Shown in pieces: positions 45,729-53,696 of a stretch of DNA of 64,000 nt. The notes below the pieces were generated by a model. It ran no database searches, was not told the DNA's origin, and saw nothing but the letters and a program-made list of their open reading frames with translations. Origin of the DNA: Escherichia coli (GTDB lineage: Bacteria > Pseudomonadota > Gammaproteobacteria > Enterobacterales > Enterobacteriaceae). Numbering within the stretch: position 1 is the first letter of the stretch; every line of letters starts with the position of its first letter. The stretch is taken from NCBI RefSeq assembly GCF_003334785.1, contig NZ_QOWV01000001.1; one strand, written 5' to 3'. A program made the position numbers and the translations under genes.

Positions 45729-49119
<3,391 letters not shown>

Positions 49120-49347
49120 CGCACAGTCCATTCTTAATCAAATGATTGATTAAGATTATGACTCCATAGGGGAGTTGTCCAGTATGGCTAAGAATTTTAG
49201 CAACGCCAGTCACAGGGATAATTTATGCGCTGTGTCACAAAAACTGCTACACTCCGCTCCCTCATGACATTGTGGTTTTTGTCATTTTCCTTTTCAGTAT
49301 CTCCCTGAAAACTACACCGGTAACGGTCGGGGCGGTTCGGAGTAGTT

Positions 49348-50712
49348 ATGTCTTTCGATTCTTTGGGTTTAAGCCCTGATATCCTGCGCGCCGTTGCCGA
49401 GCAGGGTTACCGTGAACCCACCCCTATTCAGCAGCAGGCGATCCCTGCGGTGCTGGAAGGCCGCGACCTGATGGCTAGCGCCCAGACCGGCACCGGCAAA
49501 ACAGCGGGCTTTACGCTGCCGCTGTTGCAACACCTGATCACTCGCCAGCCGCACGCCAAAGGGCGTCGTCCGGTACGTGCGCTCATTCTTACCCCGACCC
49601 GTGAACTGGCGGCGCAGATTGGCGAAAACGTCCGTGATTACAGCAAATACCTGAACATTCGTTCGCTGGTGGTGTTTGGTGGTGTGAGTATTAACCCGCA
49701 GATGATGAAACTGCGTGGCGGCGTTGATGTGCTGGTGGCAACCCCGGGACGTTTGCTGGACCTGGAACATCAGAATGCAGTGAAGCTGGATCAGGTTGAA
49801 ATCCTCGTCCTCGATGAAGCTGACCGCATGCTCGACATGGGCTTTATCCACGATATCCGTCGCGTGTTAACAAAACTACCTGCGAAGCGCCAGAACCTGT
49901 TATTCTCCGCGACCTTCTCTGACGATATTAAAGCCCTGGCGGAAAAACTGTTGCACAACCCGCTGGAAATCGAAGTGGCACGCCGCAATACCGCGTCTGA
50001 TCAGGTGACCCAGCACGTTCACTTTGTCGATAAGAAACGCAAACGCGAATTGCTGTCGCACATGATTGGGAAAGGGAACTGGCAGCAGGTGCTGGTGTTT
50101 ACCCGTACCAAACACGGCGCTAACCATCTGGCTGAACAGCTCAATAAAGATGGCATCCGTAGTGCGGCGATCCACGGCAATAAATCGCAAGGTGCGCGTA
50201 CTCGTGCGCTGGCTGATTTTAAATCGGGCGATATTCGTGTACTGGTGGCAACTGACATCGCTGCGCGCGGCCTGGATATTGAAGAGCTGCCGCACGTCGT
50301 CAACTATGAACTGCCAAACGTACCTGAAGATTATGTCCACCGTATCGGGCGTACCGGTCGTGCGGCTGCTACCGGTGAAGCGTTGTCGCTGGTGTGTGTT
50401 GATGAACACAAACTGCTGCGTGATATCGAAAAACTGCTGAAAAAAGAGATCCCGCGCATTGCGATTCCGGGCTATGAGCCGGACCCGTCAATCAAAGCCG
50501 AACCGATCCAGAACGGTCGCCAGCAACGTGGCGGCGGCGGTCGTGGGCAAGGTGGTGGTCGCGGTCAACAGCAACCACGCCGTGGGGAAGGTGGCGCAAA
50601 ATCTGCAAGCGCGAAACCTGCAGAAAAACCGTCTCGCCGCCTCGGCGATGCCAAACCGGCAGGCGAACAACAACGTCGCCGCCGTCCGCGTAAACCTGCC
50701 GCTGCGCAGTAA
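49348..50712 (+). CDS. rhlE: ATP-dependent DEAD-box RNA helicase
   Basis: 454-aa ORF; GKT Walker A, DEAD box (VLDEADRM), RG-rich basic C-terminal tail. Confidence 0.95.
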
Positions 50713-50764
50713 TCTTTTATGCCGGGCTATGCCCGGCATCAGGCTGATGAACAAACGCAAAACT

Positions 50765-50864
<100 letters not shown>

Positions 50865-50943
50865 TTCACAACAAGCACTTGTCAGCAATTTGAGAACACG
50901 GGAAAAAATTTATCTGTTTTACCGCCCATAAGCCACCGAGACG

Positions 50944-51426
50944 TTACTTCTCTATAGCCAATTGTTCGCGCAACTCCATTAAAAGGTAGCCCAGTCGATT
51001 CTTGCCCTTACCATGACCACCGTCTCCCCAGTAAGCATCGTTTTCCGTATGCTCAACCAGTTTTGCGGGCGCGGTTGCCAGCAAGAGCGCACGCAGTTCT
51101 GCATGCTGTTCGAATTTAGCGCGAAGTGCTTTTCGCATCACCTGTTCTTTGACCGACTCCCAGTTTTTACGCAGAGGCTTAGAACGATCGCGCCCCATGC
51201 GTGCGGCGACCATAGGGGAAGAAACCCGACGGATCTCTTCGCGGTATTTTTCATCAAGGAATTTTTGTGCCTGAAAATAGTGTTCTGAGGTGGGCCAGGT
51301 TTTCCCGTCAACCTTGATGGGCCAGGCGGCAAAGTTAGAAAAATCACCGTAGTCATCGCTGGTGCTGTAGAAATTTATGATGGTGTCTTGCATGACGTGT
51401 TGGATCCTTTGTGCTCGAACGGGCAT
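50944..51426 (-). CDS. ybiA: YbiA-family N-glycosidase (DUF1768)
   Basis: 160-aa ORF; divergent from dinG. Confidence 0.85.
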   Translation of the reverse strand: MPVRAQRIQHVMQDTIINFYSTSDDYGDFSNFAAWPIKVDGKTWPTSEHYFQAQKFLDEKYREEIRRVSSPMVAARMGRDRSKPLRKNWESVKEQVMRKALRAKFEQHAELRALLLATAPAKLVEHTENDAYWGDGGHGKGKNRLGYLLMELREQLAIEK

Positions 51427-51511
51427 TAAACCGCATTATGTTGGTGGTTATTGCGAGCCGCTTTCCAGAAACAGAAAAACCATTACCCCTGAAAACCGAA
51501 AAATGCCACAA

Positions 51512-51531
51512 TATTGGCTGTTTATACAGTA
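51512..51531. promoter_or_regulatory. Non-canonical LexA box of dinG
   Basis: tattggctgtttatacagta has TTG-N10-CAG spacing that mimics the SOS box; about 15 bp upstream of the dinG ATG. Confidence 0.7.
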
Positions 51532-51545
51532 TTTCAGGTTTTCTC

Positions 51546-53696
51546 ATGGCATTAACCGCCGCGCTTAAAGCGCAAATTGCCGCCTGGTATAAGGCGCTTC
51601 AGGAACAGATCCCCGACTTTATTCCCCGTGCGCCGCAGCGGCAGATGATTGCGGACGTCGCCAAAACGCTGGCCGGAGAAGAAGGGCGACATCTGGCGAT
51701 TGAAGCCCCCACCGGCGTTGGGAAAACGCTCTCTTATTTGATTCCCGGCATCGCCATTGCCCGCGAAGAGCAAAAAACGCTGGTGGTGAGTACCGCCAAC
51801 GTGGCATTGCAGGATCAGATTTACAGCAAAGATTTACCGCTGCTGAAAAAGATCATTCCCGATCTTAAATTCACTGCCGCTTTTGGGCGTGGGCGCTACG
51901 TTTGTCCGCGTAATCTGACGGCGCTCGCCAGTACTGAACCCACGCAACAGGATCTGCTGGCGTTTCTTGACGACGAACTGACGCCGAACAATCAGGAAGA
52001 GCAAAAACGTTGTGCGAAGCTGAAGGGCGATCTCGATACTTATAAATGGGATGGTCTGCGCGATCATACTGATATCGCTATAGATGACGATCTCTGGCGT
52101 CGTTTAAGTACCGACAAAGCCAGCTGCCTCAACCGCAATTGTTACTACTATCGTGAATGCCCGTTTTTTGTCGCTCGTCGGGAGATTCAGGAAGCGGAAG
52201 TGGTGGTGGCAAACCATGCGCTGGTGATGGCGGCGATGGAAAGCGAAGCGGTATTGCCTGACCCGAAAAATTTACTGCTGGTGCTGGACGAAGGCCATCA
52301 CCTGCCGGATGTGGCGCGGGATGCGCTTGAGATGAGCGCCGAAATCACCGCGCCGTGGTATCGGCTACAGCTGGACTTGTTCACGAAACTGGTCGCTACC
52401 TGCATGGAGCAGTTTCGCCCGAAGACCATCCCACCGCTGGCGATCCCTGAACGTTTGAATGCGCATTGTGAAGAGTTGTATGAGCTTATCGCCTCGTTAA
52501 ACAACATTCTCAATCTCTACATGCCTGCCGGGCAGGAGGCAGAGCACCGTTTTGCGATGGGCGAACTGCCAGATGAAGTGCTGGAGATCTGCCAGCGGCT
52601 GGCAAAACTCACCGAGATGCTGCGTGGCCTGGCGGAGTTATTTCTTAACGATTTAAGTGAGAAAACCGGCAGCCATGACATTGTACGTCTGCATCGGTTG
52701 ATTTTGCAGATGAACCGCGCGTTGGGGATGTTCGAGGCGCAAAGCAAACTCTGGCGGCTGGCTTCGCTGGCGCAATCTTCCGGTGCACCGGTGACCAAAT
52801 GGGCGACGCGGGAAGAGCGCGAAGGGCAGCTACACCTCTGGTTTCACTGCGTGGGAATACGTGTCAGCGATCAGCTGGAAAGGCTGCTGTGGCGCAGTAT
52901 TCCGCACATTATTGTCACCTCCGCAACCTTGCGTTCGCTGAACAGTTTTTCGCGTTTGCAGGAGATGAGTGGTCTGAAAGAGAAAGCGGGCGACCGTTTT
53001 GTGGCGCTGGATTCCCCCTTTAACCACTGCGAACAGGGCAAAATTGTTATTCCCCGGATGCGCGTTGAGCCTTCCATCGACAACGAAGAGCAGCATATTG
53101 CCGAAATGGCGGCCTTTTTCCGTAAGCAGGTGGAGAGCAAAAAACATCTCGGTATGTTGGTACTGTTTGCCAGCGGACGGGCGATGCAGCGCTTTCTCGA
53201 CTATGTGACGGATTTACGTCTGATGTTGCTGGTTCAGGGCGATCAGCCGCGTTACCGTTTAGTTGAACTGCACCGCAAACGCGTCGCCAACGGTGAGCGC
53301 AGCGTGCTGGTGGGCTTACAGTCATTTGCCGAAGGGCTTGATTTGAAAGGTGATCTGCTCAGCCAGGTGCATATCCACAAAATCGCTTTTCCGCCCATCG
53401 ACAGCCCGGTGGTGATCACCGAAGGGGAATGGCTGAAAAGCCTCAACCGCTATCCGTTTGAGGTGCAAAGCCTGCCGAGCGCCTCGTTTAACCTGATTCA
53501 GCAGGTTGGGCGACTGATTCGAAGCCACGGTTGCTGGGGCGAAGTGGTTATCTACGACAAACGCTTGCTGACCAAAAATTATGGCAAGCGACTACTGGAT
53601 GCATTACCGGTATTTCCGATAGAGCAACCGGAAGTCCCTGAAGGTATAGTTAAAAAGAAAGAAAAAACGAAATCCCCACGCCGTCGGCGGCGTTAA
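51546..53696 (+). CDS. dinG: ATP-dependent DNA helicase DinG (XPD-like)
   Basis: Start placed at MALTAALKAQIAAWYKAL; Walker A APTGVGKT; DEGHH box; 716 aa. Confidence 0.93.
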   Translation: MALTAALKAQIAAWYKALQEQIPDFIPRAPQRQMIADVAKTLAGEEGRHLAIEAPTGVGKTLSYLIPGIAIAREEQKTLVVSTANVALQDQIYSKDLPLLKKIIPDLKFTAAFGRGRYVCPRNLTALASTEPTQQDLLAFLDDELTPNNQEEQKRCAKLKGDLDTYKWDGLRDHTDIAIDDDLWRRLSTDKASCLNRNCYYYRECPFFVARREIQEAEVVVANHALVMAAMESEAVLPDPKNLLLVLDEGHHLPDVARDALEMSAEITAPWYRLQLDLFTKLVATCMEQFRPKTIPPLAIPERLNAHCEELYELIASLNNILNLYMPAGQEAEHRFAMGELPDEVLEICQRLAKLTEMLRGLAELFLNDLSEKTGSHDIVRLHRLILQMNRALGMFEAQSKLWRLASLAQSSGAPVTKWATREEREGQLHLWFHCVGIRVSDQLERLLWRSIPHIIVTSATLRSLNSFSRLQEMSGLKEKAGDRFVALDSPFNHCEQGKIVIPRMRVEPSIDNEEQHIAEMAAFFRKQVESKKHLGMLVLFASGRAMQRFLDYVTDLRLMLLVQGDQPRYRLVELHRKRVANGERSVLVGLQSFAEGLDLKGDLLSQVHIHKIAFPPIDSPVVITEGEWLKSLNRYPFEVQSLPSASFNLIQQVGRLIRSHGCWGEVVIYDKRLLTKNYGKRLLDALPVFPIEQPEVPEGIVKKKEKTKSPRRRRR

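Follow-up and report, generated by a model that had tools for sequence, protein, structure and literature searches.

Where does the low-complexity region at the C terminus of the RNA helicase encoded at this locus begin, and what might it contribute to the enzyme? The window, by which we mean the whole 64,000-nucleotide stretch of Escherichia coli DNA that was analysed, contains in its ORF list a coding sequence at 49348..50712 (+) that specifies 454 amino acids and ends in a TAA stop codon (50710..50712, +). A sequence-only reading had proposed that the last 75 or so residues of this protein form an arginine/glycine-rich, disordered 'RGG' tail appended to a DEAD-box core, typical of RNA-tethering or condensate-forming extensions.

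By every criterion that could be tested, the protein is RhlE, an ATP-dependent DEAD-box RNA helicase. Several complete E. coli genomes have an annotated rhlE whose nucleotide sequence matches this ORF at 100% identity, and of 5426 E. coli genomes 5424 contain a match. Its neighbours are those of the E. coli locus in annotated genomes: hlyD and cecR lie upstream of it and, downstream, a NADAR-family gene. The NCBIfam RhlE equivalog NF007882 (PRK10590) is matched at 981.6 bits (cutoff 743) over the full length, residues 1–454 aligning to profile positions 1–456 of 456. The scores for RhlE1 (559 bits, cutoff 750) and RhlE2 (623 bits, cutoff 925) are too low, leaving the enterobacterial RhlE equivalog as the only one of the three models whose cutoff is passed. 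RecA-like domain 1 (Pfam DEAD, PF00270; E = 5e-49) spans residues 25–196 (49420..49935, +) and RecA-like domain 2 (Pfam Helicase_C, PF00271; E = 4e-30) residues 232–339 (50041..50364, +). Inspection of the translation locates AQTGTGKT at 45–52, DEAD at 156–159 and SAT at 187–189 in the first domain, and HRIGRTGR at 331–338 in the second. In an alignment of 125 sequences, motifs I (AxTGTGKT), II (DEAD), III (SAT) and VI (HRIGRTGR) are invariant or nearly so, and together with both RecA-like domains they place the protein among the DEAD-box (SF2) RNA helicases. A Pfam search identified no domain past residue 339.

The interval 50485–50712 (+) translates exactly to the Arg/Gly-rich peptide that had been assigned to it, in frame with the 454-residue ORF. 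These last 75 residues comprise 20% Gly, 17.3% Arg, 13.3% Ala, 13.3% Gln, 10.7% Pro and 8% Lys, and include no aromatic residue. They carry a net charge of +14, against +6 for the 379-residue core; only 4% of them are hydrophobic (core, 32%), and their mean Kyte-Doolittle hydropathy is −1.72 (core, −0.27). When the protein was shuffled 5000 times, no stretch of 75 residues equalled their combined content of Arg, Gly and Gln. The Shannon entropy of 20-residue segments falls to ~1.7 bits at residues 388–413, compared with a core mean of 3.37 (s.d. 0.18), and among the 65 ORFs of at least 150 residues in the window the RG stretch holds the lowest-complexity 20-mer (1.49 bits, the next being 2.29).

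The proposed extent of ~75 residues has to be shortened. Low complexity and predicted disorder hold for residues ~391–454 (64 residues) and fail for residues 380–390, which have a normal entropy of 3.2–3.4 bits, are 80–100% conserved among enterobacterial orthologues (117 clusters) and are modelled at a pLDDT of 88. The low-complexity part, predicted to be disordered, thus begins at about residue 391 (window position 50518) and ends at residue 454 (50709). The label 'RGG' is likewise loose. A di-/tri-RGG sequence, in the definition attributed to Thandapani et al. 2013, is said to comprise at least two RGG triplets spaced by 0–4 residues, and a tri-RG sequence three RG dipeptides with the same spacing. 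The tail has a single strict triplet, at R394, and the other RGG of the protein (R123) sits in the core, so the stretch is not a di-/tri-RGG sequence. RG dipeptides occur at 394, 399, 405 and 412, and the first three, separated by the spacers GGG (3) and QGGG (4), constitute a tri-RG box; the RG at 412 lies 5 residues further on. What stands, then, is an RG-rich tail with a tri-RG box.

Disorder prediction had been named beforehand as a check, and AlphaFold, charge-hydropathy analysis and domain searches all assign the tail as disordered. With an input of 125 diverse sequences (44–96% identity), AlphaFold returned a model with a mean pLDDT of 88.4 and a pTM of 0.81, in which the means of ten-residue blocks are 88–98 for nearly all blocks up to residue 390, the exceptions in the core being 211–220 (69) and 331–340 (81). 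Over residues 391–454 the block values are 53, 50, 50, 54, 58, 59 and 55, a range (50–59) that serves as an indirect proxy for disorder. Secondary structure is absent from the model beyond residue 370, and 391–454 is coil throughout. When only 33 close orthologues were supplied, the mean pLDDT was 52.6, parts of the core fell below 50 and the tail could not be separated from the core. In the charge-hydropathy plot the tail lies on the disordered side (H 0.309, boundary 0.480) and the core, with both RecA domains, on the folded side. Our search of the PDB found no structure of RhlE, and the solved DEAD-box structures aligned by phmmer mostly cease to align at RhlE residues ~360–378. At the level of prediction the tail therefore has the attributes of an intrinsically disordered region, namely its charge and hydropathy, the lack of a recognized domain, low pLDDT and coil, and we consider residues ~391–454 (64 residues) to be predicted as intrinsically disordered.

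The C-terminal region resolves into a post-core extension followed by three tail segments. The extension (residues 365–390; 50440..50517, +) is conserved and predicted to be ordered, with pLDDT values of 95, 97 and 88 for the blocks covering 361–390; its last 11 residues overlap the interval originally assigned to the tail and are neither low-complexity nor predicted to be disordered. Some distant representatives show a PG(F/Y)EPD..I.PEPI-like pattern in this extension. The pattern P[IVL]xxG[RK] was found in only 8 of 120 diverse representatives (~1 expected), so the AEPIQNGR linker is no family-wide motif and belongs mostly to the enterobacteria. The RG box follows (residues 391–412; 50518..50583, +), with a net charge of +6, 9 Gly, 6 Arg and, judged by composition and entropy, the lowest complexity. 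The middle of the tail (residues 413–440; 50584..50667, +), delimited in the orthologue alignment, is rich in Ala, Lys, Pro, Ser and Glu with a net charge of +2, and the terminal basic patch (residues 441–454; 50668..50709, +) has a net charge of +6 and an R..RRPRKP pattern that is 60–90% conserved in enterobacterial clusters.

At the DNA level the Gly and Arg residues of the RG box are encoded by a mixture of codons, and no tandem repeat was detected there by Tandem Repeats Finder. Repeat searches of 50400–50960 returned only a weak 15-nucleotide near-repeat (50594–50622) and direct repeats at chance level. Since no tandem repeat underlies the box, we dropped recent slippage as its origin. 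Between E. coli alleles (that of the window, L001, L002 and L003) a single Gly codon is gained or lost in one or other of the two Gly runs of the box, and the encoded proteins accordingly have 453, 454 or 455 residues.

Comparison of tail length among RhlE orthologues was also a check named in advance, and it bears out a tail of 68–126 residues (median 81) in 117 enterobacterial clusters. This set was drawn from the best 120 database clusters, all from Enterobacteriaceae, with four frameshifted clusters left out and the window protein included. Tail net charge stays between +12 and +18, and 113 of the 117 tails are free of aromatic residues. Compared with E. coli, the cores are ~94% identical and the tails ~65%; within the tail, conservation is bimodal: the ends, namely the linker, the RG box and the terminal R..RRPRKP, reach 80–100%, and the indel-prone middle (413–440) has a column conservation of 0–50% with frequent gaps, orthologues expanding, contracting and substituting within it. 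Kosakonia and related genera (P0113–P0120) carry tails of 102–126 residues whose middle has been expanded by KP.GGRR.(D/E)GGAA-like repeats; this amplification is lineage-specific and confined to the tail, with the RG box and the RRRRPRKP end retained.

In a more distant set, made up of 119 diverse representatives of RhlE-like proteins from clustering at 50% identity (core identity roughly 46–71%), the tails have 37–367 residues (median 161), among which the E. coli tail is one of the shorter ones. All but two of these tails are net-positive (117 of 119), 110 of them with at least +8, and hydrophobic residues make up a median fraction of 0.10. Only 31 of the 119 contain at least two RGG/GGR triplets, and 28 are rich in Lys instead of Arg. 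The last 15 residues have a median net charge of +4, and outside Enterobacteriaceae it is this charge alone, not the terminal RRRRPRKP motif, that is conserved. Across these alignments the conserved trait is a basic, hydrophilic and unstructured tail, rather than its sequence, length or RG character, and selection preserves net charge (+12 to +18 in the enterobacterial set) and not sequence or length.

We propose that the C-terminal extension of RhlE consists of a short ordered segment that follows the two RecA-like domains to residue ~390 and of ~64 disordered, basic residues that most likely would bind the RNA backbone electrostatically and without specificity. Such a tail could keep the core of the enzyme bound to large RNAs, and this tethering would raise the local concentration of substrate for ATPase activity and unwinding. 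Its contacts being multivalent, many and weak, the tail would also favour clustering or condensation of RhlE in an RNA-dependent manner. We assign a probability of about 0.8 to this reading, in which the tail is the known, disordered and basic extension of RhlE that tethers the core to RNA and promotes condensation. DEAD-box ATPases of the class described by Hondele et al. 2019 reportedly undergo RNA- and ATP-dependent phase separation and form foci in a manner that depends on their low-complexity regions. Several reports describe foci or condensates of E. coli RhlE, all citing Hondele 2019 for them, and also its enrichment in large cross-linked particles and its colocalization with DeaD condensates (PMC7414142, PMC13106914, PMC12758526, bioRxiv 10.64898/2026.03.23.713837). 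Dependence of condensation on the low-complexity region has been demonstrated only for RhlE1 and RhlE2 of Pseudomonas aeruginosa (PMC11260450). The C-terminal disordered regions of these proteins aid RNA binding and unwinding (PMC11260450, PMC8266600), and they are both necessary and sufficient for RNA-dependent phase separation, truncation abolishing droplets and the isolated regions phase-separating with RNA (PMC11260450). E. coli RhlB needs its basic, RNA-binding tail for the stimulation of its ATPase by RNA (PMC7611231, PMC3814787). In the accessible literature we found neither a truncation or deletion of the E. coli RhlE tail (~391–454) nor a description of it as RGG, and its contribution therefore rests on analogy: we infer RNA tethering and condensate formation by this tail from homologues and the literature. 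Deletion of rhlE in E. coli has no obvious growth phenotype (PMC1616957).

Could the tail instead be a neutral, functionless low-complexity appendage produced by replication slippage in G/C-rich repeats? The one-codon variation of the Gly runs among E. coli alleles, the growth and shrinkage of the tail middle between genera and the description of RhlE-like tails as fast-evolving (PMC8266600) are what such an origin would leave behind. Against this, the mixed codons of the RG box conceal no DNA tandem repeat, positive charge is kept at +12 to +18 across tails of 68–126 residues, and it persists in nearly all of the distant relatives. Comparison of the window rhlE with the three E. coli alleles (93.8–96.6% DNA identity) shows that the tail differs by 11–15 synonymous changes and by 0, 4 and 0 non-synonymous ones, yielding pN/pS values of 0, 0.13 and 0 at a pS of 0.19–0.26, with corresponding core values of 0–0.01. 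Amino-acid substitutions in the E. coli tail are seen only at 413–421. These ratios show purifying selection on the tail within E. coli and, with the tail's own HMM match given below, mark it as a functional part of the protein and not junk; we consider the neutral explanation very improbable. Although the DNA of the alleles diverges by up to 6%, the core protein is itself near-invariant among them, its only changed residue being position 196 of L003. Even less credence can be given to the idea that the tail is an artefact of annotation or reading frame and that the true product is an overlapping ORF. Two such frames are present in the ORF list, one of 103 residues at 50459..50770 (+) and one of 90 residues at 50488..50760 (−), and 4 of the 120 database clusters have tails in another frame, one of them (P0026) matching the +1-frame ORF. 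The rhlE frame nevertheless runs unbroken from the helicase core, the tail by itself scores 67.8 bits on positions 380–456 of the curated HMM NF007882, fitting it to its last position, and substitutions in this frame are overwhelmingly synonymous; we rejected the alternative ORFs as real products. Frameshifted variants are also rare, mostly single metagenomic or assembly-derived entries, and end in hydrophobic nonsense. The shifted clusters are P0019, P0026, P0041 and P0055, of which P0026 shifts after ...GGGGRG into the +1-frame ORF of the window and reads through its stop; they probably stem from indel errors that arose in metagenome or run assemblies at the G-rich DNA of the RG box, and they make tail length look more diverse than it is.

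A different function, rather than none, is proposed by the explanation that the tail serves mainly in protein docking, with the linker, the RG box and the terminal RRRRPRKP acting as short linear motifs for RNase E, RraA, poly(A) polymerase or ribosomal particles and with RNA binding secondary. The bimodal conservation of the tail fits this proposal, as do several interactions: E. coli RhlE binds RNase E and poly(A) polymerase (PAP I) in vitro (PMC1616957), it also binds the acidic RraA in vitro, the mixture of the two precipitating (PMC3814787), the site at which RhlB contacts RraA is its basic extension (PMC3814787), and the C-terminal extension of P. aeruginosa RhlE2 is necessary and sufficient for interaction with RNase E (PMC11260450). 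The last interaction, however, depends on RNA (PMC8266600), the terminal motif gives way to charge alone among the 119 diverse representatives, and in the accessible literature we found no mapping of a partner to the E. coli RhlE tail. We regard docking as the main role as unlikely, though it is compatible with RNA binding. The conserved ends of the tail suggest a property beyond generic polycation behaviour. It is more doubtful still that the RG box and RRRRPRKP are specific docking motifs, for RNase E, RraA or pre-ribosomal particles, and that the lengths of Gly runs and spacer tune condensates or partner binding by lineage.

Electrostatic RNA tethering, our preferred reading, has its closest parallels in P. 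aeruginosa RhlE1 and RhlE2, members of the same family whose identity to E. coli RhlE is 51% and 43% and which share its layout, in that a basic, disordered C-terminal extension comes after a RecA1–RecA2 core. The tails are unrelated in sequence: that of RhlE1 is short and Lys-rich and that of RhlE2 is ~200 residues long with a Gly/Glu-rich stretch (PMC8266600), whereas the E. coli tail is Arg/Gly/Gln-rich and 64–75 residues long. E. coli RhlB resembles RhlE in having a short, Arg-rich, unstructured tail (~397–421) on a paralogous DEAD-box core; this tail binds RNA non-specifically, supports RNA-stimulated ATPase activity and contacts RraA (PMC7611231, PMC3814787), but at ~25 residues it is much shorter, and RhlB needs RNase E for activity whereas RhlE alone is a strong ATPase (PMC7611231). 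According to PMC3814787, Mss116p and CYT-19 likewise have an unstructured basic tail after the core that tethers it non-specifically to large RNAs. Unlike RhlE, they have a structured α-helical C-terminal extension that precedes the tail, and their substrates are group I/II introns. We found no tethering experiment for E. coli RhlE in the accessible literature.

Eukaryotic Gly/Arg-rich disordered regions of DEAD-box helicases and RNA-binding proteins, such as the C-terminal RGG of yeast Dbp2 and those of Ded1/DDX3, DDX4/LAF-1 and FUS, show degenerate RNA binding and promote condensation. In the phmmer alignment to yeast Dbp2 (8ark), RhlE is matched as far as residue 418, inside the RG box; most other helicases stop by ~378. 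Compared with these regions, RhlE has one strict RGG, a single tri-RG cluster and no long RGG arrays, and its tail lacks Tyr/Phe partners for cation–π contacts. E. coli is not known to methylate RGG arginines. The likeness is compositional and not one of homology. Promotion of condensation by RGG/RG regions is noted, from work cited there, in PMC13106914.

The disordered basic tail of RhlE is thus already described and ordinary for its enzyme family: the C-terminal extensions that E. coli's five DEAD-box proteins carry, which differ from one another, were reviewed in 2006 (PMC1616957), experimental studies have dissected RhlE-type tails (PMC8266600, PMC11260450), and the condensate-forming helicases already include E. 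coli RhlE. The significance of the observation goes little past correct annotation. Our analysis adds a predicted onset of disorder at ~391 and not 380, a three-part tail with conserved ends, and a net charge that selection preserves.

The sequence 3' of rhlE holds several further elements. A perfect 9-bp hairpin lies just beyond the stop codon at 50719–50739 (AUGCCGGGC-UAU-GCCCGGCAU), with no U-tract after it, and is followed by REP-like palindromic elements at 50786–50867. Within these, Rfam ES036 is matched at 50786–50828 on the − strand (43.3 bits, gathering score 37.6) and naRNA4 below threshold at 50832–50867 on the + strand (40.7 against 59.5). A 175-nucleotide stretch 3' of rhlE folds far better than its shuffles (z = −4.4). 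The elements look like REP/BIME-type 3' elements and not genuine sRNA genes. A promoter and terminator scan of 49100–51000 gave sites no more numerous than in shuffled sequence.

The gene that follows rhlE differs between strains. In E. coli O157:H7 F6294 (L001, 3476–4368) it is espX2, a type III effector gene, and in the window, compared at 50713–50943, it is the NADAR-family gene (ybiA), which in strain CU39ES-1 (L002) is annotated as a truncated pseudogene. Given espX2 in the one and the NADAR-family gene in the other, the 3' flank of rhlE is a point of insertion that varies from one E. coli lineage to the next. Beyond the NADAR-family gene lies an ORF at 51411..53696 (+) that we take to be DinG. 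The ORF as listed begins at an upstream GTG, and the protein itself probably begins at the internal MALTAALKAQ.... This helicase-like protein also ends in a short basic tail, encoded at ~53650–53696 (...EGIVKKKEKTKSPRRRRR).
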